Part shown: one piece after another, positions 3,218-21,330 of the stretch
Layout of the letters: every line of letters begins with the position of its first letter
How positions within the stretch are numbered: the first letter of the stretch is position 1
The notes under the pieces: model-generated
What the model was told of the DNA's origin: nothing
Databases searched by the model: none
The model's input: only the letters and a program-made list of their open reading frames with translations
Position numbers and translations under genes: made by a program
DNA from: a virus
Length of the DNA stretch: 64,000 nucleotides
Strand: one strand, 5' to 3'
UHGV virus genome: UHGV-0073881

Positions 3218-3421
3218 ATGGCTATTATTAACGGCTTAACCATCGAAAAAACACACATCAAAGACATTAAAGTTGGGGATACAGTTCTTTTTCACGGCGT
3301 AGAAAAAACTGTCACCGCAAAAGATATCAAAGAAGATTCTTTCATGGGTGTGACTCTATTCGGCGACTCTTATCGCTTAGGATACCTTGCAGTTTTAAAA
3401 GTTATCAAAAATAACCGATAA
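3218..3421 (+). CDS. hypothetical early protein (67 aa)
   Basis: ORF track; leader variant CTTAAACTAGGAGATTCTAAAAAATG. Confidence 0.55.
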   Translation: MAIINGLTIEKTHIKDIKVGDTVLFHGVEKTVTAKDIKEDSFMGVTLFGDSYRLGYLAVLKVIKNNR

Positions 3422-3487
3422 AGTACTTTACAGGGGGCTTAAAAGTTGATACCTTAAGCCCCAGATAAAGAGCTTTACCAAATCAAT
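3421..3487 (+). repeat. conserved intergenic cassette type A (hairpin GGGGCTTAA/TTAAGCCCC)
   Basis: same flanking arms AGTACTTTACA ... CCCCAGATAAAGAGCTTTACC. Confidence 0.55.
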
Positions 3488-5537: not shown

Positions 5538-7100
5538 ACGTCTATGTAATAGCCCCTCTCAAATGCTTATATAAACCCTTCCCCTGTCCTTTCCAGAATC
5601 TTACAAGACCTTAAAAAGCAATAACTCTATAGCTTACTCTATAACCTCTTATCAAATCAACTTAAATATAAGCCCATAACCCGAAAGGGAAGGGCAATCC
5701 CTTAAACGCTCTATAACGCTCTATAACGGCTTATCAACTCAACTTAACCAATCATATTAACCCACTCTTAAAAGCCCTCTATAGAGCTTCATAGACCCTT
5801 AAAAGAATCTTATAAGGGGTGTAAGCTTTATCATCTCGTTAGTATCTTGTGAATAGTTAAACAGGGGGCTTGTTATTAGCTTAAAAGTATGTTATAGGGG
5901 CTTAAAAGTAGCTATAAAGTTACGTAAAAGTATCGTAAATGCTAGCCCCCTTAACATTTCTTTAACAATTTCTTAACAATCCCTACATAGTTATGCTTAT
6001 TAGAGACTTGTTAGCACCTTGTTAAATCTCTGTTAAGACTATGTTACAACCTTGTTAGATTCTTTGGAGTCCCTATATAAGCCCCTGTAAAGGGCTATAA
6101 AGAGCTATACAGTCAGTTGGGCTATAGTTACTATGGAGAACCTTAGAAATGGCTGTATAGAGCTATACAGGGCTTTTAAGAGGGCTTTTAAGAGAATCAC
6201 TGAGAAAGATAGGGAACTATAGACCAAGAGATAGTGACATGTTAACAGCTTGTTAAAAAGGTTAAACACTTGTTAGGAACTTGTTAATAATCTTAACAAA
6301 ATAACTCTTAACATTTAACTACTCAACTCTTGTTAGCAATCTGTTAAGACTCTGTAAAGACTATGCAACAACTGTTAAGCACTTGTTACAATCTTGTTAG
6401 CTCTGTTAAGGGTCTATTAAGAACTCTGAAGAGATGTTAAGAGGATGTAGTAACTGTTAAGAAATTGTTAATGATATTTTAAGATTTTGCAAAGGGTATG
6501 TTACAGGGATGTTAAGGGCTACCAAGCAGATATACACCCTAGACAGATATTTTTCAGTTCCTTCAAAGAACCTAAATAAAACACTTGACAGTCTATTTTA
6601 TAAAAATTTTATAGAACTGAATAACTATCTATACACTATCTAGTATAAAACAGGTAATAACAGGCTTATAAGATACCTTGTTAGTACCGTGTTAGACCTT
6701 GTAGGATAAGCCTTAGAAGGGAATACCTGTTTAGTGCTATATAACAGTCTATATAGAGGCTTAGTAAACCCTAGTGAACCATCTATAGAGAGTCACATAG
6801 TTAACATAGAGATTAAGATGGGTATAGGAGCTTCTAAGGGGTTGTTAAGATGTTAGGAAGGGGGTTGTATAGGTGGTTAAGAAGGCTTGTTAGAGAGCTT
6901 GTTAGAGGGCTATTTAGAAGGGGCTATACAGTTCACTATATCGAATCACTAGAAAGAGACTAAGAGGCTATATAGATACTATATAATACTATATAGAGAG
7001 TATGCTTAGATAGGTTGTTTAGAAGGGCTAGATATTTTATCACATATCATGGTGACCCAAGATGAACGTAGTGAATCCAAATTTTATAAAATTATAAATT
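5538..7100. repeat. ORF-free repeat-dense region (short TTGTTA / CTGTTAAG / CTTGTTAG and CTATACAG / CTATATAG repeats)
   Basis: no ORF of 60 aa or more on either strand; dozens of short direct and palindromic repeats, densest 5930-6480 and 6650-7000. Confidence 0.6.
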
Positions 7101-14454: not shown

Positions 14455-15870
14455 ATGAGCGAATTATTTGACCACTCAAACCTTCATCAAGGTCGTACTG
14501 AAAATGGTGCTGTAAACCACACCTCTTCAATGTCAGCCTCGGTAGACTTCTACAAAGCTGCTGGCTCTAGCCGCAACTACGTAGAGAAACTTCCAAATCT
14601 TTTCTACAAAGCTTTACGGGAAGATATTGATGTTGCTGTACGAATCCTGCTTCATATGCGAGATGCACGAGAAGGTATGGGTGAGCGTAAAGCGTTCAGA
14701 ACTGTTTTGACTGAATCCATCAAAAGCAACATCCTAGACTCTTTCCAAGTTCTACGTATCATGGAAAAGATTTCTGAACTAGGCCGTTATGATGACTTTA
14801 AAATCTTCGTAGGTACTCGATACGAAACAGATGCTTTCAAACAACTTGAAGCAGCACTGTTAGACCCTAACACTGCACAGTTAGCTGCAAAGTGGTTGCC
14901 AAGGGTTAAGCGTCGTCATATGAACTTTGTAAACCGCTTCTGTAAGTTTGCAAAGCTAAGTCAGAAAGAGTACCGACTGTTACTGTCAGCCTTGTCTGAT
15001 ACGGTTGAGCAGAAGATTTCTGCAAATGCTTTTGGAGAGATTGATTACAGTAAAATCCCTTCACTGGCTGCTGCACGTTACCAGAAGCTTTTCGGTCGTA
15101 AAGATGGTGAGCGTTACAAAGCATACATTGAAGCTCTTACTAAAGGTGAGACCAAGATTAATGCTGGTGCAGTTTACCCATACGATGTGATTAAGTCAGT
15201 AAATTACGGAAACGCTACAGTTGCCAATGAACAATGGAAAGCTTTATCAAACTGGATGGCAGATGGTGAAAACATTCTCTGCATGACAGACGTATCAAGC
15301 TCTATGACTTGGGAAAGACACGGTGCAGTTACTGCTTTAGATATTGGTATGTCTCTTGCATTATACGTCGCAGAACGCAACACAGGTTGTTTTAAAGATG
15401 AGTTAATGGTTTACTCCAGCAGACCTCACTTTATTACACTGAGTGGAGATTTAGCACAACGTAAGCGTCAGGTAATGTCTCATGTTGAGTATGGTTCAAC
15501 TAACCTTCAAGCAGCATTTGACAGAATTCTTGAAATTGGTGTTAAAAATGGCTTGACACAAGAAGCTATGCCAAGTAAGCTTATTATCTTCTCTGATATG
15601 GAATTCAATCAGGTTGATGGTGCAAATGGTCTTACTAACTTTGAAGCAATTCAGAGTAAGTACAAAAAAGCTGGATATGAGATGCCACAACTGGTATTCT
15701 GGTACTTAGCTGACCGTAACGGTAATTGCGAAGTATCTGTAAAGGATAACGGAGTAGCAATGGTTTCAGGTTTCTCTCCAGCCACCTTAAAAGCTTTGCT
15801 TGGTGGTGAGAAGTTTGACCCTATCAGCGTAATGCTCAAAGCAGTAATGATTGAACGCTACGATTGGTAA
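14455..15870 (+). CDS. vWA-domain protein with Ro60/TROVE-like architecture (471 aa)
   Basis: C-terminal vWA with MIDAS motif DVSSSM, GSTN and IIFSDMEF segments; order and spacing resemble the Ro60 C-terminal half; N-terminal 270 aa helical domain unassigned. Confidence 0.7.
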   Translation: MSELFDHSNLHQGRTENGAVNHTSSMSASVDFYKAAGSSRNYVEKLPNLFYKALREDIDVAVRILLHMRDAREGMGERKAFRTVLTESIKSNILDSFQVLRIMEKISELGRYDDFKIFVGTRYETDAFKQLEAALLDPNTAQLAAKWLPRVKRRHMNFVNRFCKFAKLSQKEYRLLLSALSDTVEQKISANAFGEIDYSKIPSLAAARYQKLFGRKDGERYKAYIEALTKGETKINAGAVYPYDVIKSVNYGNATVANEQWKALSNWMADGENILCMTDVSSSMTWERHGAVTALDIGMSLALYVAERNTGCFKDELMVYSSRPHFITLSGDLAQRKRQVMSHVEYGSTNLQAAFDRILEIGVKNGLTQEAMPSKLIIFSDMEFNQVDGANGLTNFEAIQSKYKKAGYEMPQLVFWYLADRNGNCEVSVKDNGVAMVSGFSPATLKALLGGEKFDPISVMLKAVMIERYDW

Positions 15871-16035: not shown

Positions 16036-16112
16036 CTCTGTTTAGCTCAGTTTGGTAGAGCGTTCCGTTTGGGGCGGTAAGGCCAGAGGTTCAAGTCCTC
16101 TAACAGAGACCA
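16036..16112 (+). tRNA. tRNA-Pro (anticodon TGG), isotype tentative
   Basis: acceptor CTCTGTT/AACAGAG, D-stem GCTC/GAGC, T-arm AGAGG-TTCAAGT-CCTCT, anticodon loop TTTGGGG, CCA encoded. Confidence 0.7.
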
Positions 16113-16119
16113 AATTAAT

Positions 16120-16194
16120 GTCGTAGAAGGCAAATGGTTAGCCACCTGACCTTCAATCAGTTGCTCGCGGGTTCGAATCCCGTCTACGACTCCA
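16120..16194 (+). tRNA. tRNA, anticodon TTC (Glu?), isotype uncertain
   Basis: acceptor GTCGTAG/CTACGAC, T-arm GCGGG-TTCGAAT-CCCGT, CCA encoded; anticodon loop CCTTCAA has C at position 33. Confidence 0.6.
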
Positions 16195-16200
16195 AATTTG

Positions 16201-16269
16201 ACAGAAGACCAAATACAGCAAACAACTTTTACTTTTCGCGCATAGAAAACATAAAAAGCTTGGTCTGGT
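16201..16269 (+). repeat. tRNA-array spacer module A (ACAGAAGACC ... ACAGCAA ... GGTCTGGT)
   Basis: conserved 5-prime ACAGAAGACC and 3-prime GGTCTGGT ends with AT-rich core; 4 copies in array. Confidence 0.6.
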
Positions 16270-16279
16270 CATTAAGAAT

Positions 16280-16356
16280 TGCGGGTATAGAGAAAGGGCG
16301 TCTCACATGTCTCATTAGCATGGTATCGGTAGGTTCGACTCCTGCACCCGCCTCCA
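16280..16356 (+). tRNA. tRNA-Met-like (anticodon CAT)
   Basis: acceptor TGCGGGT/ACCCGCC (1:72 mismatch), T-arm GTAGG-TTCGACT-CCTGC, loop CTCATTA, CCA encoded; weak D-stem. Confidence 0.6.
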
Positions 16357-16361
16357 AATTT

Positions 16362-16425
16362 ACAGAAGACCGTTTACAGCAATTCAAACAATTTTATCGG
16401 AAAATTAAAATGAATACGGTCTGGT
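16362..16425 (+). repeat. tRNA-array spacer module B
   Basis: ACAGAAGACCGTTTACAGCAA ... ACGGTCTGGT. Confidence 0.6.
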
Positions 16426-16437
16426 AATGTTAAACAT

Positions 16438-16514
16438 GGTTAGGAAGCACATAAGGCATGTGCGGTCGGCTGTTAACCGAATGGCACAGGGTTCGAATCC
16501 CTGACTAACCGCCA
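16438..16514 (+). tRNA. tRNA-Asn (anticodon GTT)
   Basis: acceptor GGTTAGG/ACTAACC, D-stem GCAC/GTGC, T-arm CAGGG-TTCGAAT-CCCTG, loop CTGTTAA, CCA encoded. Confidence 0.75.
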
Positions 16515-16524
16515 AAATTTAAAT

Positions 16525-16612
16525 GCGTCGTTATCCCGTAGATGGAAGCGGTGGTGACTGTAAATCACTTGTCATTACGACTCGGTAGGTTCGACTCCTT
16601 CACGGCGCACCA
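16525..16612 (+). tRNA. tRNA-Tyr (anticodon GTA), class II with long variable arm
   Basis: 88 nt; acceptor GCGTCGT/ACGGCGC, anticodon stem GGTGA/TCACT loop CTGTAAA, T-loop TTCGACT, CCA encoded. Confidence 0.7.
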
Positions 16613-16618
16613 AATAAA

Positions 16619-16696
16619 GGTTATGTAGTTTAATCTGGTTAAAATACCTCCCTGTCACGGAGGAAGATGTGGGTTCGAATCCCATCGTAACCGCCA
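16619..16696 (+). tRNA. tRNA-Asp (anticodon GTC)
   Basis: acceptor GGTTATG/CGTAACC, anticodon stem CCTCC/GGAGG loop CTGTCAC, T-arm GTGGG-TTCGAAT-CCCAT, CCA encoded. Confidence 0.75.
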
Positions 16697-16754
16697 ATTT
16701 TGAGAAGGGCTTTTTAGCCCCTCCCTTAAAGAGTTCTTGCGAGTATTCTTTAAA

Positions 16755-16835
16755 GGAGCAGAAGACCAAATTCAGCAAGCAACAAAAATATTTCAAGCCA
16801 ATTAATTTGAAAAATTTAAAACTTGGTCTGGTTCC
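16755..16835 (+). repeat. tRNA-array spacer module C
   Basis: GCAGAAGACCAAATTCAGCAA ... CTTGGTCTGGT. Confidence 0.55.
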
Positions 16836-16844
16836 AACAAATTT

Positions 16845-16969
16845 ACAGAAGACCGTTTACAGCAAGTTAAACAATCTAATTCTCTATGAAAGAAAGGGCG
16901 AAGGTTCGATTCCTTCACACGTTACGGCGTGTTGGTGTAATGGCAGCACTTAAGATGATACGGTCTGGT
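16845..16969 (+). repeat. tRNA-array spacer module D, carrying a tRNA-like T-arm and acceptor-like hairpin
   Basis: ACAGAAGACCGTTTACAGCAA ... GAAGG-TTCGATT-CCTTC (16900-16916), ACACG-TTACGG-CGTGT hairpin (16917-16932) ... ACGGTCTGGT; no full cloverleaf. Confidence 0.55.
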
Positions 16970-17118
16970 AATCCTCTTTGCAGTGACTTATGGAGCTAAT
17001 ATATCGTCCCATGAGTGCCGATGAATCTCTTGAGCATGATTCTAGATTAGCTTACTAAGAGATGACTCTACAAACCCTTTAGCAAGGTTTGCGTAGGTTA
17101 CTGCAAAGATGATTTAAT

Positions 17119-17194
17119 GGAAGTGTAGCAGAATGGTGATGCGGCAGACTTTTAATCTGACAGGCGATGGGTTCGAATCCCTCCACTTCTACCA
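17119..17194 (+). tRNA. tRNA-Lys (anticodon TTT)
   Basis: acceptor GGAAGTG/CACTTCT, anticodon loop CTTTTAA, T-loop TTCGAAT, CCA encoded. Confidence 0.7.
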
Positions 17195-17279
17195 AATTCG
17201 CCCTTAATTGAAGAATACCTACTTCGCGGCTGGAAACACCCACGAAAAATCAATTCTTCTCCAAAGGGCAACTTATTAC

Positions 17280-17356
17280 GGTTCAGTCGCAGATAAGGTA
17301 ATGCAAGGGTTTCATAAGCCCTATGAATGTGGGTTCGACTCCCATCTGAACCTCCA
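17280..17356 (+). tRNA. tRNA with anticodon CAT (Met or Ile2)
   Basis: acceptor GGTTCAG/CTGAACC, anticodon stem AGGGT/GCCCT loop TTCATAA, T-arm GTGGG-TTCGACT-CCCAT, CCA encoded. Confidence 0.75.
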
Positions 17357-17358
17357 AT

Positions 17359-17433
17359 TGTGGGTTAGCATAAATGGTAATGCAAACGGCTGATAACCGT
17401 TAGAAGAGGGTTCGATACCCTCACCTACAACCA
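17359..17433 (+). tRNA. tRNA-Ile (anticodon GAT)
   Basis: acceptor TGTGGGT/ACCTACA, D-stem GCA/TGC, anticodon stem AACGG/CCGTT loop CTGATAA, T-arm GAGGG-TTCGATA-CCCTC, CCA encoded. Confidence 0.75.
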
Positions 17434-17448
17434 ATTCCAATAAAGTTG

Positions 17449-17477
17449 TTGACATTAACATGTGACCACTTTATAGT
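17449..17477 (+). promoter_or_regulatory. strong sigma70-like promoter inside tRNA array (TTGACA-N17-TATAGT)
   Basis: -35 TTGACA 17449-17454, 17-nt spacer, -10 TATAGT 17472-17477; followed by about 320 nt with no ORF and no canonical tRNA. Confidence 0.55.
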
Positions 17478-17801
17478 AACTAAAATACTTCATAATATGT
17501 ATAATTCAAACACCAATACATGAGCGTTAGACGTAACACAATGTGGGGAAATTTGTTGTACATATTCTGAATAGTTTTCGTTAGTGTAGCGTCTATTTTG
17601 CAAACTTAAAAATAAATGCAAACGATAATGTTTTTCTGGCAGTAGCTTAATAGGCTAAACACCAGTGAGGTCTTCCAATCCCTCATCAAAGAATTTGGCG
17701 TACTAGCCCACGGTATGATTAATAAAGTGGGCGACATTCTAAAGGGTATCCCTTATGGGGCTTGGCTTAAATGCAATGAGTACCCTTTAAAATGTTAATT
17801 A

Positions 17802-17883
17802 CGGGGCGTATCTCAGCGGTCTTCTAAACCGCCGTTAACCGAGTAAGTGGAGTATGCGGGTTCGAGTCCTGCCGCCTCGACCA
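17802..17883 (+). tRNA. atypical tRNA-like gene (Arg TCT-like anticodon arm), possible pseudogene
   Basis: acceptor CGGGGCG/CGCCTCG, T-arm GCGGG-TTCGAGT-CCTGC, CCA encoded; stem GCGGT/ACCGC with loop CTTCTAA but no canonical D-arm and a 23-nt segment before the T-arm. Confidence 0.4.
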
Positions 17884-17898
17884 ATTTTGGATGAAATC

Positions 17899-18246
17899 AT
17901 GAAGACTTGTATTAGGTGCAAACTTAGCAAGGATGAAAATGATTTCTACATGAAAGATGGTAGGAGAACTCATTCATACTGTAAAAAGTGTGTTAATGAG
18001 CAAACCATAGAAAGACAAAGAGCACTTAAACTTTCAGCTGTTGAGTACAAAGGTGGGGTTTGTCATGATTGTGGTAAAAGGTATCATCCAGCAGTGTATG
18101 ACTTCCATCATTTGAATCCTTCAGAGAAAGATTTTAACATTGGTCATAGAAAAAGTCTTAAGTTCTCTCAGGAGCTAAAGAACGAACTTGACAAATGTGT
18201 TTTGCTATGTTCAAATTGCCATAGGGTAAGACATGCAAAGTATTAG
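17899..18246 (+). CDS. HNH endonuclease (zinc-finger plus HNH) embedded in tRNA array
   Basis: CxxC...CxxC and FHHLNPSEKD...LLCSNCHRVRH motifs; ORF track 17854 start lies inside the tRNA, so start moved to ATG 17899. Confidence 0.8.
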   Translation: MKTCIRCKLSKDENDFYMKDGRRTHSYCKKCVNEQTIERQRALKLSAVEYKGGVCHDCGKRYHPAVYDFHHLNPSEKDFNIGHRKSLKFSQELKNELDKCVLLCSNCHRVRHAKY

Positions 18247-18383
18247 TTAGCAGATTGCTTAGACGACCTTAACGGGTCTCCTGTAAGGAGGTGGTCTGTA
18301 TCTCATGTTTCCAGAGCATGTAAAAATATTCTGAGAAGGGGCTTTACAGTGTTGTGATAATACGGTAAGCTTCGAATTATAAT

Positions 18384-18466
18384 ATGGGACGATGTTAAGA
18401 CTCTAAGGCATGAGCAACGGCTTCCAACACCGTTTCAAAGGGGTTCAACTCCTCCGTCCCATGCCA
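18384..18466 (+). tRNA. tRNA, possibly Trp (anticodon CCA); atypical
   Basis: acceptor ATGGGAC/GTCCCAT, T-loop TTCAACT, CCA encoded; stem AACGG/CCGTT around TTCCAAC; extra nucleotides between acceptor and D region. Confidence 0.45.
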
Positions 18467-18478
18467 AAGTCTTATTAG

Positions 18479-18567
18479 GGGTAGGTAGCGGCTAATGGTA
18501 GCCAAACTGTCTTGAAAACAGTTGCCACTGTAGAGATACGGTGAGGGTTCGACTCCTTTACTTACCG
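18479..18567 (+). tRNA. tRNA-Ser (anticodon TGA), class II
   Basis: acceptor GGTAGGT/ACTTACC, D-stem GGC/GCC, anticodon stem ACTGT/ACAGT loop CTTGAAA, long variable arm, T-loop TTCGACT; CCA not encoded. Confidence 0.7.
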
Positions 18568-18817
18568 CCTAATAAGATTTAAAGCCGCGCTTCGTTCGGA
18601 TGTTGCGTTAGGTTTCACTTCGTGTATTGTCGTACACGATGTTGAGAAAGCACCTAGTAGGTGTCACGGAGAAGAGATAGCATCAAGCTCTCCAAAGGTT
18701 CTAGTCACCGGATTAAACAAGACTATGCAAAGACTGATTAGGTCTTTTTAGATAACTTCTGAGGCAAACTATACCATTGTTGCTTTGGGTCTTGGAAGTT
18801 CTCTACAAAGATTTAAT

Positions 18818-18894
18818 GCACCTATAGCCCAATTGGAAGAGGCAGCAGACTTAGAATCTGTTCAGTGTGAGTTCGACTCTCTCTAGGTGTACCA
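18818..18894 (+). tRNA. tRNA with anticodon TAG (Leu-type anticodon, class I length)
   Basis: acceptor GCACCTA/TAGGTGT, D-arm CCCAATTGGAAGAGG, anticodon stem GCAGA/TCTGT loop CTTAGAA, T-loop TTCGACT, CCA encoded. Confidence 0.6.
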
Positions 18895-18901
18895 AATTAA
18901 T

Positions 18902-18977
18902 GCAGGTGTAGCAAAATGGTTATGCGGCTGACTCTTAATCAGTAAGACGATGGGTTCAATTCCCTCCACCTGTACCA
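18902..18977 (+). tRNA. tRNA with anticodon CTT (Lys?)
   Basis: acceptor GCAGGTG/CACCTGT, anticodon stem GCTGA/TCAGT loop CTCTTAA, T-loop TTCAATT, CCA encoded. Confidence 0.6.
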
Positions 18978-18983
18978 AACATT

Positions 18984-19059
18984 GGGGATGTAGTTTACAT
19001 GGTTAAAACATAAGTTTTGCAAACTTAAGTACAGGGTTCAATTCCATGCTTCTCCACCA
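18984..19059 (+). tRNA. tRNA-Ala (anticodon TGC)
   Basis: acceptor GGGGATG/CTTCTCC with G3:U70 identity pair, anticodon stem TAAGT/ACTTA loop TTTGCAA, T-loop TTCAATT, CCA encoded. Confidence 0.75.
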
Positions 19060-19065
19060 ATTAGT

Positions 19066-19140
19066 GCATCCATAGTTTAAACGGGAAAATTACAGTCTTC
19101 CAAACTGAGGTTGAGGGTTCGATTCCCTCTGGATGCTCCA
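19066..19140 (+). tRNA. tRNA-Gly (anticodon TCC)
   Basis: acceptor GCATCCA/TGGATGC, T-arm GAGGG-TTCGATT-CCCTC, anticodon loop CTTCCAA, CCA encoded. Confidence 0.75.
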
Positions 19141-19146
19141 ATTCAT

Positions 19147-19222
19147 GCTCCTATCGTATAACTGGCTATTACGGTTGTCTTGTAAGCAACTTATCAGGGT
19201 TCGAATCCTTGTGGGAGCACCA
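19147..19222 (+). tRNA. tRNA-Thr (anticodon TGT)
   Basis: acceptor GCTCCTA/TGGGAGC, D-stem CGTA/TACG, anticodon stem GTTGT/GCAAC loop CTTGTAA, T-arm CAGGG-TTCGAAT-CCTTG, CCA encoded. Confidence 0.7.
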
Positions 19223-19316
19223 ATTTGAGGTCAAGTGAAAGACCGCTTGAGTCAACTGAAGACCGTAACAAATTCCACGGAGTTGAGTTAGCGGCACAAC
19301 TTCAGACCTCTTTAAA

Positions 19317-19391
19317 GCTCGCTTAGTTTATATGGTAAAGCCCCATCCTTACAAGTTGGTGAAGAAGGTTCAAGTCCTTCAGCGAGTACCA
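19317..19391 (+). tRNA. tRNA-Val (anticodon TAC)
   Basis: acceptor GCTCGCT/AGCGAGT, T-arm GAAGG-TTCAAGT-CCTTC, anticodon loop CTTACAA, CCA encoded. Confidence 0.7.
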
Positions 19392-19392
19392 A

Positions 19393-19470
19393 GTTCCAGT
19401 ATCCCAATTGGCAGAGGATGCAAGCTCAAACCTTGTATTAGTGACGGTTCGAATCCGTCTTGGAACACCA
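19393..19470 (+). tRNA. tRNA with anticodon CAA (Leu-type anticodon, class I length)
   Basis: acceptor GTTCCAG/TTGGAAC, D-stem ATCC/GGAT with loop CAATTGGCAGA, anticodon stem GCAAG/CTTGT loop CTCAAAC, T-arm GACGG-TTCGAAT-CCGTC, CCA encoded. Confidence 0.65.
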
Positions 19471-19487
19471 AATTTTAGGAGATTCCT

Positions 19488-19700
19488 ATGAAGCCTTATG
19501 GTAGACACGGTAAAGTTGAAATTGCAAGTTGTGGTTGCTGTGCTTCTCACGATGGTGAAGAAGATTACTACAAGTGGCGTACAGACCATCGTAGACGCTT
19601 TCTCAGAAGAGATAAGAAGAAAGCTAGACAGGAATCTCGAAAAGATATTGCAGAATTAGTTCAAATGGATAGAGCAGCAACCTACGAAGTTGTTAGTTAG
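19488..19700 (+). CDS. hypothetical small basic protein (70 aa); 3-prime end overlaps tRNA-Arg
   Basis: ORF track; RBS AGGAG 7 nt before ATG; last 50 nt overlap the tRNA at 19650. Confidence 0.35.
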   Translation: MKPYGRHGKVEIASCGCCASHDGEEDYYKWRTDHRRRFLRRDKKKARQESRKDIAELVQMDRAATYEVVS

Positions 19701-19723
19701 GGGTTCGAATCCCTTATTCTGCA
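19650..19723 (+). tRNA. tRNA-Arg (anticodon ACG)
   Basis: acceptor GCAGAAT/ATTCTGC, D-stem GTTC/GAGC, anticodon stem GCAAC/GTTGT loop CTACGAA, T-arm AGGGG-TTCGAAT-CCCTT; CCA not encoded. Confidence 0.75.
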
Positions 19724-19744
19724 CAAATTTTAGAAGGTAATTAT

Positions 19745-19972
19745 ATGCGTAAACTCATTATTGAAAGGCATAAAGATGCTGACAAGATTGAAACAACACA
19801 AGTTGGGGACACTGACTTCATTCTTGTAGGTTGGAAATGTGACCCAATAGCAGCTATGAAGGTTGTTCATGGTTTTGCAGGAATTGAATTTAATCAAATC
19901 ATATTTGAAACGCTATTACCAGAAAATCAGGATACGTGTAATAACGCATATATCCTGACAAGAGTTCGTTAG
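19745..19972 (+). CDS. hypothetical protein (75 aa) between tRNA genes
   Basis: ORF track; ATG start; stop abuts tRNA-Gln. Confidence 0.4.
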   Translation: MRKLIIERHKDADKIETTQVGDTDFILVGWKCDPIAAMKVVHGFAGIEFNQIIFETLLPENQDTCNNAYILTRVR

Positions 19973-20046
19973 GGGATTAGTTTACAAGGTTAAAACCTCG
20001 GTCTTTGAAATCGAAGAAGTTGGTTCAATTCCAACATCCCCCGCCA
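19971..20046 (+). tRNA. tRNA-Gln (anticodon TTG)
   Basis: acceptor AGGGGAT/ATCCCCC (1:72 mismatch), anticodon stem TCGGT/ATCGA loop CTTTGAA, T-arm GTTGG-TTCAATT-CCAAC, CCA encoded. Confidence 0.7.
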
Positions 20047-20048
20047 AT

Positions 20049-20127
20049 GCTCCATTACTCCAATTGGCAGAGAGGCCAGACTTAAAATCTGTGTTATGTA
20101 TCGGTTCGAATCCGATATGGAGTACCA
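20049..20127 (+). tRNA. tRNA with anticodon TAA (Leu-type anticodon, class I length)
   Basis: acceptor GCTCCAT/ATGGAGT, D-arm CCAATTGGCAGAG, anticodon loop CTTAAAA, T-arm ATCGG-TTCGAAT-CCGAT, CCA encoded. Confidence 0.65.
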
Positions 20128-20133
20128 AATATT

Positions 20134-20209
20134 AGCAGTGTAGCATAACTGGCAATGCTCCAGCCTCTGAAGCTGAAAGATTAAGGTTCAAATCCTTACA
20201 CTGCTGCCA
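20134..20209 (+). tRNA. tRNA with anticodon CTG (Gln)
   Basis: acceptor AGCAGTG/CACTGCT, D-stem GCAT/ATGC, anticodon loop CTCTGAA, T-arm TTAAG-GTTCAAAT-CCTTA, CCA encoded. Confidence 0.65.
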
Positions 20210-20240
20210 CTTCTAAGGGTTCTTACGAGAGTCCTTAAAT

Positions 20241-20317
20241 GTGGCCTTATCATAAATGGATAATGACCCATGCTGTGAACATGGTCTATACGGGTTCGAT
20301 TCCCGTAGGTCACCCCA
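20241..20317 (+). tRNA. tRNA-His (anticodon GTG)
   Basis: acceptor GTGGCCT/AGGTCAC with C73, D-stem TCAT/ATGA, anticodon stem CCATG/CATGG loop CTGTGAA, T-arm ACGGG-TTCGATT-CCCGT, CCA encoded. Confidence 0.75.
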
Positions 20318-20324
20318 ATTTTAA

Positions 20325-20401
20325 TAGCTCAATTAGCTTATATGGTTAAAGCGCGTGTCTGAAAAACATGAGAACAGGGTTCAAATCCCGATGGGCTACC
20401 A
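20325..20401 (+). tRNA. tRNA-Phe (anticodon GAA), irregular acceptor/D junction
   Basis: anticodon stem CGTGT/ACATG loop CTGAAAA, D-stem GCTT/AAGC, acceptor TAGCTCA/TGGGCTA, T-loop TTCAAAT, CCA at 20399-20401. Confidence 0.6.
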
Positions 20402-20417
20402 ACTTTATAGGTGCATA

Positions 20418-21152
20418 ATGAAAGAGATGACAGGACAAGGTAAAGAGATTTTCAATCTCCTTAAATCCGGTAACGGGTTCTCTAACCCTCTTATTACTGG
20501 TGCAGCAGTTCTTGGTGGTACAGTTGCTGCTTCTCAGTCATTAATCACTTCAATTAGTTCTGTATCAGACCCAGCTACCCAGCAAATCCTTATTGCTGCT
20601 GGCTTGACAACTGCCTTACTAAGCAGCTTTACAACAAGCCTTGGTAGCACCACTTCAACGACAACTACTTTAACTGACTATGGACAGAAGTCTGTAGATG
20701 AGTTTTCACAGCGTATGCAGGTAGCCAAAGGATACTCTAATGTTATGGGAGCAGCGGGTGAACAAGTTGGATGTACACCGTTTAGTGGAATCATGGGAGT
20801 TGCTACTGAATACGGTAACAAGGCTATGGATTTGATTAACACCTCCATAGATGCCGTAAACAGCGTTCTAAGCGACTTACAGGATGCAATTGATAAAGGA
20901 CTAGCAACCATCTCTGACCTCGCTACACAAGCTGTTACAGCGATTAATGAAGGTATGGCAAAGATTACTGCCTACGCTAATGAAGTGGCTCAGATGATTG
21001 CAGACGAAGCAGCAATGATTGCAGAGTATCTAAAAACCAATATTAATGGTTTCCTTGCAAATGTTTTACCAGATTGGTTTAACGATGATTGTAAGACGGG
21101 TGTAATTGATACAATTGCAACTCCAGAGATGAAAGAAGCTCTAAACAAATAA
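20418..21152 (+). CDS. hypothetical Ala/Ser/Thr-rich protein embedded in tRNA operon (about 244 aa)
   Basis: ORF track 20355-21152; start moved to first ATG after tRNA-Phe (MKEMTGQ) with AGGTG RBS. Confidence 0.6.
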   Translation: MKEMTGQGKEIFNLLKSGNGFSNPLITGAAVLGGTVAASQSLITSISSVSDPATQQILIAAGLTTALLSSFTTSLGSTTSTTTTLTDYGQKSVDEFSQRMQVAKGYSNVMGAAGEQVGCTPFSGIMGVATEYGNKAMDLINTSIDAVNSVLSDLQDAIDKGLATISDLATQAVTAINEGMAKITAYANEVAQMIADEAAMIAEYLKTNINGFLANVLPDWFNDDCKTGVIDTIATPEMKEALNK

Positions 21153-21155
21153 TTT

Positions 21156-21248
21156 GGAAGATTAACCCTAAAAGGTAAGGGAGCAGTTTGCTAAACTGCC
21201 AGTAGCTGAGAAATTGGTGTACCAGTTCAAGTCTGGTATCTTCCTCCA
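21156..21248 (+). tRNA. tRNA-Ser (anticodon GCT), class II
   Basis: 93 nt; acceptor GGAAGAT/ATCTTCC, D-stem CCC/GGG, anticodon stem GCAGT/ACTGC loop TTGCTAA, long variable arm, T-arm ACCAG-TTCAAGT-CTGGT, CCA encoded. Confidence 0.75.
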
Positions 21249-21254
21249 AATTTT

Positions 21255-21330
21255 GCATTGGTGTCAGAAATGGATATGTACCTGTCTGCAAAACAGGTTT
21301 ATGAGGGTTCGAGTCCCTTCCAATGCTCCA
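21255..21330 (+). tRNA. tRNA-Cys (anticodon GCA)
   Basis: acceptor GCATTGG/CCAATGC, anticodon stem CCTGT/ACAGG loop CTGCAAA, T-arm GAGGG-TTCGAGT-CCCTT, CCA encoded. Confidence 0.8.

Follow-up and report, generated by a model that had tools for sequence, protein, structure and literature searches.

A short palindrome stands in front of a tRNA gene in a phage tRNA cluster and repeats both strands of the acceptor stem of that tRNA, with no tRNA body between them. The question is whether it is the trace of a lost tRNA, a binding site, or part of something larger. The DNA analysed here (the window) is a stretch of 64,000 nt. BLAST placed it in the Ounavirinae, the FelixO1-like myoviruses of E. coli, Salmonella, Shigella and Citrobacter, and the best match was the Shigella phage Henu11, a Mooglevirus (94.6%). 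Positions 16036-21330 contain 23 tRNA genes found by ARAGORN and a few more found by Rfam alone, all on the plus strand. The palindrome, here called H3, lies in the 248-nt spacer between two of them:

18480-18569, plus strand: tRNA-Ser(UGA), the upstream boundary of the spacer
18650-18664, plus strand: palindrome hairpin H3, stem 18650-55/18659-64, loop AGU, present in 55 of 55 related loci
18818-18894, plus strand: tRNA-Leu(UAG) allele a, called by ARAGORN and Rfam

An HNH gene occupies 17854-18246. A scan located sigma70-like promoters upstream of the spacer at 17449-17477 and 18354-18383, the former being 'P45' of FelixO1 (PMC3185647). The same cluster holds further conserved non-tRNA elements at 17584-17733 and 18386-18470. 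Some of its tRNAs, such as Glu(ttc) and Leu(caa), share acceptor arms, and the spacers of outgroup phages contain T-arm-like remnants.

The sequence at 18650-18664 reads GCACCTAGTAGGTGT, that is, GCACCTA-G-TAGGTGT. The tRNA-Leu(UAG) allele a has the acceptor stem GCACCUA/UAGGUGU with a G1.U72 pair, an A73 discriminator and an encoded CCA (tail ACCA). The identity between the palindrome and both arms of this tRNA, which the earlier note had pointed out, is exact over GCACCTA and TAGGTGT. The arms of 24 tRNAs were searched as 5' arm, 0-12 nt and 3' arm on both strands of the window, and H3 was the single 7+7 hairpin recovered. When the acceptor-arm hairpins of every tRNA were searched in six long related or outgroup loci, none was found besides H3. 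The similarity between tRNA-Leu and the sequence around H3 was confined to the arms, with none further out. In 18570-18817, neither ARAGORN nor Rfam at E up to 10 gave a tRNA-like call; only the two 7-nt arms matched.

The chance estimate for this match varies with the search space. In the widest space (the whole window, both strands, gaps of up to 12 nt), 26 of 300 dinucleotide shuffles contained a 7+7 match, a chance of about 0.09. On the plus strand of the tRNA cluster with gaps of up to 5 nt, the figure fell to 5 of 3000 shuffles. For the arms of allele a within the 248-nt spacer directly upstream of tRNA-Leu, it was 0 of 20000. The suspicion, raised at the outset, that chance explains a match of this length thus finds some room in the widest space and little in the two restricted ones. 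Because the match is statistically unusual in the latter (5/3000 and 0/20000), a true kinship of H3 with the tRNA acceptor stem is likely as judged from sequence.

The spacer between tRNA-Ser(UGA) and tRNA-Leu(UAG) matches 254 GenBank phage records, in which its length is nearly constant (approximately 240-257 nt). From GenBank, IMG/VR, metagenomes and Logan assemblies, 55 spacer-bearing loci were gathered. H3 was present in all 55 loci covering its position, always at the same offset. The variants were GCACCTAGTAGGTGT (n = 44), ACACCTAGTAGGTGT (n = 9) and ACGCCTAGTAGGTGT (n = 2). The variant forms, which begin with ACACC and ACGCC, stay paired through changes from G.U to A-U and from A-U to G.U. 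All changes in H3 were one-sided wobble changes, with no double compensatory change. The comparison proposed in the earlier note, a search of related genomes for an intact tRNA at this position, yielded none. Neither an intact tRNA nor an insertion was found at H3 in the 254 GenBank records, 23 IMG/VR contigs and 16 metagenome stretches. A gapped pattern scan allowing 42-105 nt between the neighbouring hairpins H2 and H4 gave 0 matches, and the normal gap gave 23 in IMG/VR and 16 in metagenomes.

Positions 18620-18753, approximately, are almost invariant while the flanks vary. In the metagenomic phages L041 and L042, whose Ro-like protein is 62-63% identical to that of the window and whose synteny is kept, this core is still about 95% identical, comparable to the tRNAs themselves. 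The core ends abruptly at the 62% level of protein identity. It is absent, and the gene order is different, in L043-L046 and Yersinia phage P778 (protein identity of 57% or less) and in Erwinia phage phiEa104. A search with nhmmer found neither paralogues nor distant homologues of the core in the window, phiEa104 (L038), P778 (L039) and the metagenomic outgroups L043-L046. The near-invariance among close relatives could come partly from gene conversion driven by homing endonucleases instead of purifying selection.

Some further candidates were tried and rejected. A 10-nt copy, TGGCGTAATA, upstream of tRNA-Leu(CAA) in phiEa104 looked like a second case and belongs to a tmRNA-like tag element (GTG GCG TAA TAG). 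The tRNA-Leu(CAA) of phiEa104 is also not the ortholog of allele a. Antisense targets of the core were sought within the window, and the complementary matches were just 11-12 nt, which is chance level.

A consensus structure was calculated with RNAalifold from 29 unique spacers and from a wider set of 14. The results showed a block of about 130 nt (18620-18753) with hairpins H2 to H5 and a terminator-like hairpin T, followed by a long stem, H7. The predicted elements other than H3 are as follows:

18585-18612, plus strand: H1, a hairpin of variable sequence directly 3' of tRNA-Ser, from reading of the alignment
18620-18639, plus strand: H2, hairpin (U)CGUGUA-UUGU/G-CGUACACG(A), the 5' edge of the conserved block
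18668-18693, plus strand: H4, hairpin GGAGA/UCUCC with an inner GAU/AUC stem, from the RNAalifold consensus
18702-18725, plus strand: H5, hairpin UAGUC/GACUA with a 14-nt loop containing variable positions, from the RNAalifold consensus
18729-18749, plus strand: T, terminator-like hairpin AAAGACY/RGGUCUUU followed by U5, with A-U/G.U and C-G/U.G variants
18737-18817, plus strand: H7, long stem whose upper 16-bp core covaries strongly, ending 1 nt before tRNA-Leu

Within the core, the variable positions all fell in predicted loops and each stem substitution preserved pairing. The sequence of H1 changes entirely, and its pairing is kept by compensatory changes (GCGC/GCGU, AAGC/GCUU, ACGCU/AGCGU and AUGC/GCAU), and RNAalifold missed this hairpin because of indels. 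H2 folds at -8.8 kcal/mol (z = -3.4), with a stem that is invariant except for one change from A-U to G.U. H3 as RNA has a 6-bp stem with an AGU triloop, at -6.5 kcal/mol (z = -2.8); a 1-nt loop is impossible, and therefore the seventh pair is unable to form. The variable dinucleotide of H4 sits in its apical loop, and in L049 the change from UCUCC to UCUCU turns a G-C into a G.U pair and preserves pairing. H5 carries a double compensatory change from U-A to C-G (TAGCC/GGCTA) in L041, L042 and L054. In H7, seven pairs were changed on both sides and many single changes were wobble-compatible; it folds at -28 kcal/mol (z = -3.45), and 0 of 200 shuffles folded equally well. Its apical loop contains a conserved CCWUUGUUGCU. 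The block as a whole folded no better than its shuffles (z = -0.86).

Many of the G.U pairs on the plus strand would be C.A on the other strand, and therefore the folded species is the plus-strand RNA; this is also the strand of the tRNAs. H3 is a real, selected RNA feature. H7 can be extended to about 27 bp when UUAGGUCUUU, the 3' arm of T, pairs with AAAGAUUUAA just before the tRNA, which makes T and the lower part of H7 mutually exclusive. The models predict that the RNA forms either a terminator-like hairpin or a long duplex like those cut by RNase III, each excluding the other. The stem of T has 7 bp with 2-3 G-C pairs, followed by U5 in most genomes and by UUUGU in L041 and L042; a scan for consensus terminators did not list it. 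No family in Rfam 15 matched the block. Neither a scan nor reading of the alignment gave a conserved sigma70-like -35/-10 pair with consistent spacing inside it. In the literature, no description was found of the element or of small RNAs in Ounavirinae, and the FelixO1 genome paper lists neither a terminator nor an RNA at the spacer.

The tRNA-Leu(UAG) downstream exists as two unrelated alleles at exactly one position. The window and about one third of the relatives have allele a (GCACCTA.../...TAGGTGT), and the remaining two thirds or so have allele b (GGGAGAT.../...GTCTCCT). A stub of allele b (its first 11 nt), an HNH gene and a complete allele a follow one another in mistaenkt, EcSzw-2, L028 and L037. 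This order is the signature of homing-driven allele replacement. The outer stem of H4, GGAGA/TCTCC, equals pairs 2-6 of the acceptor stem of allele b, a match that arose in 330 of 20000 spacer shuffles. The GCACCTA and GGGAGAT acceptor stems are limited to the clade that carries the core. In outgroup b-like tRNAs, the body is the same and the acceptor stem is another one (GCGTGAT, GGGGATG or GGATAAC), and the in-clade allele b differs from them precisely at the acceptor positions that match H4. H3 was equally conserved beside either allele, and H3 variant and allele were not associated. The ACACC and ACGCC forms of H3 were seen beside a tRNA that still has GCACCTA and does not mirror them; therefore, the present role of H3 does not need identity with the tRNA.

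Taken together, we believe that H3 is a stem-loop of a conserved, structured, non-coding plus-strand RNA of the Ounavirinae tRNA cluster, and that it is functional and akin to the acceptor stems of tRNA-Leu, whether through its origin or through mimicry. We give this reading a probability of approximately 0.6. The block is conserved at tRNA-like levels, whichever tRNA-Leu allele follows. The pre-tRNA transcript may release it as a stable small RNA, whose 3' end would lie at T or be made by RNase III-type cleavage of H7; such cleavage would also trim the leader of tRNA-Leu. H3 would be an RNA helix read by a protein or nuclease. That H3 equals the helix of allele a and H4 the helix core of allele b would mean that both descend from tRNA-Leu genes and were then co-opted, or that selection made them mimic acceptor micro-helices. 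The most concrete candidate for a partner would be the Ro60-like protein encoded upstream. The earlier note had suggested a remnant of a duplicated tRNA with a deleted body, or else a binding site. With respect to the remnant, a relation to the acceptor stem is likely and such an origin is possible; as a description of its present state the remnant is unsupported, since H3 has no intact tRNA counterpart in relatives, does not decay and is kept with either allele. A binding site is plausible at the RNA level alone. The outer G.T, the variants that pair only as G.U or A-U on the plus strand, and the single copy speak against a symmetric DNA operator.

Besides selected mimicry, descent or accident may explain how H3 came to resemble the tRNA. 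H3, and perhaps H4, may come from tRNA-Leu genes that lost their bodies, for example by repeated HNH-driven allele replacement, and left acceptor hairpins that were later fixed in a functional RNA. We hold this co-opted relic to be possible, though we would not count on it. It explains an origin and is compatible with a functional hairpin at present. It is favoured by the 0/20000 result for the local match, by the 11 nt of allele b that do remain at this locus in four phages, by the T-arm-like remnants of outgroup spacers, by the acceptor arms common to several tRNAs of the cluster (Glu(ttc) and Leu(caa) among them), and by the restriction of allele a and core to one clade. However, no intact or part-deleted tRNA intermediate was seen at H3 in approximately 300 genomes and contigs, the similarity stops at the arms, and simple deletion between the TAG repeats of the tRNA predicts GCACCTATAGGTGT, not GCACCTAGTAGGTGT. 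Alternatively, H3 may be functional as a hairpin and share its 7-bp stem with the acceptor stem of one tRNA allele by accident. This is consistent with its conservation beside either allele when about two thirds of the relatives have allele b, with a tRNA that does not mirror the H3 variants, with the 26/300 of the widest search, and with a match that was chosen post hoc. The restricted nulls (5/3000 and 0/20000) speak against such a coincidence, as do the adjoining H4, which independently matches the other allele, and the departure of allele b from outgroup b-like tRNAs exactly at the H4-matching positions; we consider it unlikely, though still a live rival. A real link between H3, H4 and the tRNAs, by common descent with co-option or by selected mimicry, is favoured on the strength of these comparisons, because 0 of 20000 local shuffles gave the match, H4 equals pairs 2-6 of allele b, and the acceptor stems are clade-restricted.

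The role of the hairpins can also be read without a trans-acting RNA. In a purely cis-acting element, they would guide cleavage of the pre-tRNA by RNase E, III or P, or its termination and read-through. The position within a polycistronic tRNA transcript, the upstream promoters, and T with its mutually exclusive stem of about 27 bp ending 1 nt before tRNA-Leu agree with this. However, processing stems usually tolerate sequence change, as H1 and H7 do, and H2-H5 are invariant in sequence over about 75 nt, a sign of sequence-specific recognition; in L041 and L042, T also has a broken U-run. A cis-only role is conceivable to us without being the expected one. At the level of DNA, H3 could be an operator for a dimeric DNA-binding protein or a recognition or cleavage site of a phage homing endonuclease, as an inverted repeat (6+3+6 or 7+1+7) with HNH genes close by, at 17854-18246 in the window and upstream of tRNA-Leu in some relatives. 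The FelixO1-type ACACC variants even form a perfect 15-bp palindrome. However, the outer position is G..T in most genomes, the ACGCC variant loses DNA symmetry and keeps RNA pairing, the HNH insertions of relatives lie 150 nt off at the 5' end of the tRNA, there is no adjacent conserved promoter, and there is one copy in 64 kb with near matches at chance level. A genome-wide regulator site was rejected likewise, the best near match being antisense within an ORF of 735 aa. A binding site on the DNA is unlikely, and we put the odds of it very low. The least credible reading, in our opinion, is a small protein-coding gene such as FelixO1 'ORF102' or wV8 gene 51, which are annotated across the spacer. 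All relatives keep the frame ..PSRCHGEEIxSSSPKVLVTGLNKTM.. open, ESh22 has two changes that are synonymous in it, and some records annotate hypothetical proteins here. Against this, there is no conserved start codon and the annotated ORF begins inside tRNA-Ser, H1 indels shift the frame between relatives, about 25 codons show no third-position substitution, the C-terminus varies and is cut short by premature stops in ESh22 and L012, and no Pfam or PHROG match was found.

The candidate partner of the RNA is encoded directly upstream of the tRNA cluster, 2.75 kb before the element and on the same strand:

14455-15870, plus strand: Ro60-like gene (TROVE ring plus vWA; DUF2828 and DUF7788), candidate partner

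The product belongs to PHROG 850, 'RNA-binding protein', and is 34% identical to mycobacteriophage proteins annotated as 'Ro-like RNA binding protein'. Its AlphaFold model has a pLDDT of 85.5 and a pTM of 0.86. With Foldseek, the nine best PDB matches were all full-length Ro60/TROVE proteins (E 1e-8 to 6e-7, TM 0.41-0.67); the matches include Xenopus Ro60 with misfolded RNA, Deinococcus Rsr and a Thermus phage Ro60. The Ro fold of this ORF is confirmed at the level of the predicted structure. Y RNAs typically share the strand of the Ro60 gene and lie less than 4 kb from it, and those of bacteria mimic tRNA (PMC4201824). The element agrees with this location rule (up to about 4 kb, same strand), with the end of the Ro60-like ORF at 15870 and its own start at about 18620. 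In the mycobacteriophage MiniMac, a YrlA Rfam match lies 140 nt 3' of the homologous Ro-like gene, with 37.7 bits and an E of 3e-5, sub-threshold but significant.

Compared with the YrlA Y RNAs (RF02553), the partners of Ro60/Rsr, the element shares the strand and the distance of less than 4 kb (PMC4201824), a piece that imitates tRNA, here the acceptor helix, and a similar architecture, in that H7 is a long terminal stem, conserved in sequence in its lower part and variable in its upper part, under a pyrimidine-rich loop. It differs from them in other respects. The Ro-binding motif GNCGAAN0-1G is absent, with no CGAA anywhere in the spacer. Rfam YrlA had no match in 18240-18830 at E up to 10, and the sole YrlA match in the tRNA cluster overlaps tRNA-His/Phe. 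Mimics of the T-arm or D-arm were not found in the element: there is no T-loop motif with a paired stem, and the identity is that of the acceptor helix alone. Within the Ro fold, the protein belongs to the DUF2828 branch and is no canonical TROVE ortholog, and binding is putative. A Y-RNA-like role of the element with the Ro60-like protein would have a low to moderate probability, and the conserved elements at 17584-17733 and 18386-18470 could be equally good candidates for the Ro partner. A fuller version makes the spacer RNA a new tRNA-mimicking partner RNA, in which H3 and H4 copy the acceptor helices of both tRNA-Leu(UAG) alleles, H7 docks the Ro60-like protein, and the RNP surveys, protects or regulates phage tRNA-Leu. 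The RNA might act there as a decoy for a host nuclease or enzyme that reads acceptor stems, or as a guide whose arms would pair with both strands of a misfolded acceptor stem. We regard this version as rather improbable.

The element is best filed as closest in kind to the species 1 and 2 RNAs of phage T4 (rnaC and rnaD), which are likewise small RNAs, other than tRNAs, encoded within the tRNA cluster of a phage. According to the T4 annotation, these adjoin the homing endonuclease gene segB and are matured from the tRNA precursor transcript. The T4 RNAs have tRNA-like ends, a T-arm for rnaC and ..CACCA at the 3' end for rnaD, whereas the element has neither T-arm nor CCA and ends in a terminator-like hairpin or a long stem. 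On reading by eye, there was no sequence similarity between them. Acceptor-stem microhelices and minihelices are minimal substrates of aminoacyl-tRNA synthetases, RNase P and the CCA-adding enzyme. H3 is like them a short hairpin that reproduces an acceptor helix including the G1.U72 closing pair. Unlike them, it lacks a single-stranded ACCA 3' end (the flank is CACGG), can form only 6 bp, and is embedded in a longer RNA. The tRNA fragments left by HNH cassettes, as in the T4 segB region (PMC2330249), are a further parallel, since the same locus here has an HNH allele replacement that leaves an 11-nt tRNA 5' fragment. Such scars are lineage-specific and decaying, whereas H3 is universal and invariant in the clade, with both arms present.

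Overall, the most fitting label for the element is a new family, so far unannotated, of small RNAs or processing modules in phage tRNA clusters. Phage tRNA clusters are now viewed as counter-defence tools. The T4 species 1 and 2 RNAs have been known since the 1970s, and we know of no function for them to date. The element is a second, easily testable family of non-tRNA RNA in such clusters. It is a structured RNA with tRNA-level conservation in several hundred sequenced FelixO1-like phages, many of which are used for typing or biocontrol. An entry in an RNA family database is warranted and would keep spurious ORFs such as FelixO1 ORF102 and wV8 gene 51 from being annotated across the element. 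Even if the mimicry has no function, the element remains a clear case of a conserved processing module. A functional mimicry would tie the Ro-like proteins of phages and Y-like RNAs to the biology of phage tRNAs.

A block shortly 3' of a sigma70-like promoter (17449-17477) carries a tmRNA-like tag frame. It lies in the tRNA cluster, as do a tRNA and a tRNA-like gene:

17584-17733: ultra-conserved non-tRNA block, a second one in the cluster, with the tag frame at 17617-17652
17797-17880, plus strand: tRNA, annotated in relatives as tRNA-Arg(TCT), with acceptor stem CGGGGCG/CGCCTCG
18386-18470: tRNA-like gene whose acceptor stem pairs perfectly over 7 bp (TGGGACG/CGTCCCA), with T-arm GGGGTTCAACTCC and the ending GCCA

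The tag frame reads GCA AAC GAT AAT GTT TTT CTG GCA GTA GCT TAA TAG and is translated to ANDNVFLAVA followed by two stops, a peptide similar to the E. coli SsrA tag ANDENYALAA. The block and its tag were also found in Erwinia phage phiEa104 (L038, approximately 3320-3425), in the metagenomic phages L041 and L042, and in every FelixO1-like locus. The peptide is ANDNAFLAVA in SUSP1 and ANDAQFLAVA in phiEa104; the remaining differences in the frame between phages are synonymous changes or swapped stop codons. The tmRNA matches of the block in Rfam were weak, and ARAGORN detected its resume consensus and tag only at 80% thresholds, using the tRNA domains of neighbouring tRNAs. No tRNA-like domain belonging to the block itself was found. 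The literature searched contained no mention of such a block.

The tRNA at 17797-17880 has a G3.U70 pair and A73. G3.U70 is the alanine identity pair. The start of an HNH endonuclease ORF (17854-18246) falls within its T-arm, and the N-terminus of this protein, MRVRVLPPRP.., is encoded by GGGTTCGAGTCCTGCCGCC. The tRNA-like gene at 18386-18470 has an odd middle with an apparently 9-nt anticodon loop, is 92-100% identical in L041 and L042, and was called neither by ARAGORN nor by the Rfam tRNA model. The tRNA at 16120-16191, with a good Rfam call (53.7 bits), was missed by ARAGORN; it occupies the position of tRNA-Glu(ttc) in relatives, where the first 9 nt (GTTCCAGTA) are common to tRNA-Glu(ttc) and tRNA-Leu(caa). 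A long variable arm is a normal feature of bacterial tRNA-Leu; the three "tRNA-Leu" genes of the cluster (18818-18894, 19393-19470 and 20049-20127; 77-79 nt each) all lack it. An unusual G1.U72 closing pair is common to several tRNAs, namely Leu (tag and taa), Lys (ttt and ctt) and Val.

Immediately 5' of the cluster, the DUF2828/DUF7788 protein (14455-15870, plus strand) has a Ro60 fold over its full length (TROVE ring and vWA). Its homologues occur in 710 phage records from many hosts, including Vibrio, Listeria, Staphylococcus, Campylobacter and Mycobacterium. One of them is the "Ro-like RNA binding protein" of Mycobacterium phage MiniMac (L047), and 140 nt 3' of its gene lies a match to Rfam YrlA, a Y RNA-like family (5560-5631; 37.7 bits, E 3e-5, under the gathering score).

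Isolated T-arm-like pieces (e.g., AAAGGTTCGATTCCTTT) were found in spacers 5' of tRNA-Leu(UAG) in the metagenomic outgroup phages L043 (13484-13594) and L044 (13235-13346), which indicates that tRNA fragments are common debris in these clusters. The position of tRNA-Leu(UAG) itself (18818-18894) holds either of two unrelated alleles, a (acceptor GCACCTA, as here) or b (GGGAGAT). Between the allele-b sub-variants (L001-L037), the entire anticodon stem is exchanged through compensatory changes (CTATCTCG..CGAGATG versus CTACCATC..GTTGGTG), and outside this stem they do not differ. Some genomes carry a fragment of allele b, 11 nt from its 5' end, then an HNH endonuclease gene, and then a complete allele a (loci cited for the alleles and this arrangement: mistaenkt, L003 726-1178; L006, L028 and L037). 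The GGGAG of the fragment could serve as the Shine-Dalgarno sequence of the HNH gene. The arrangement looks like a homing cassette that brings its own cleavage-resistant replacement tRNA.
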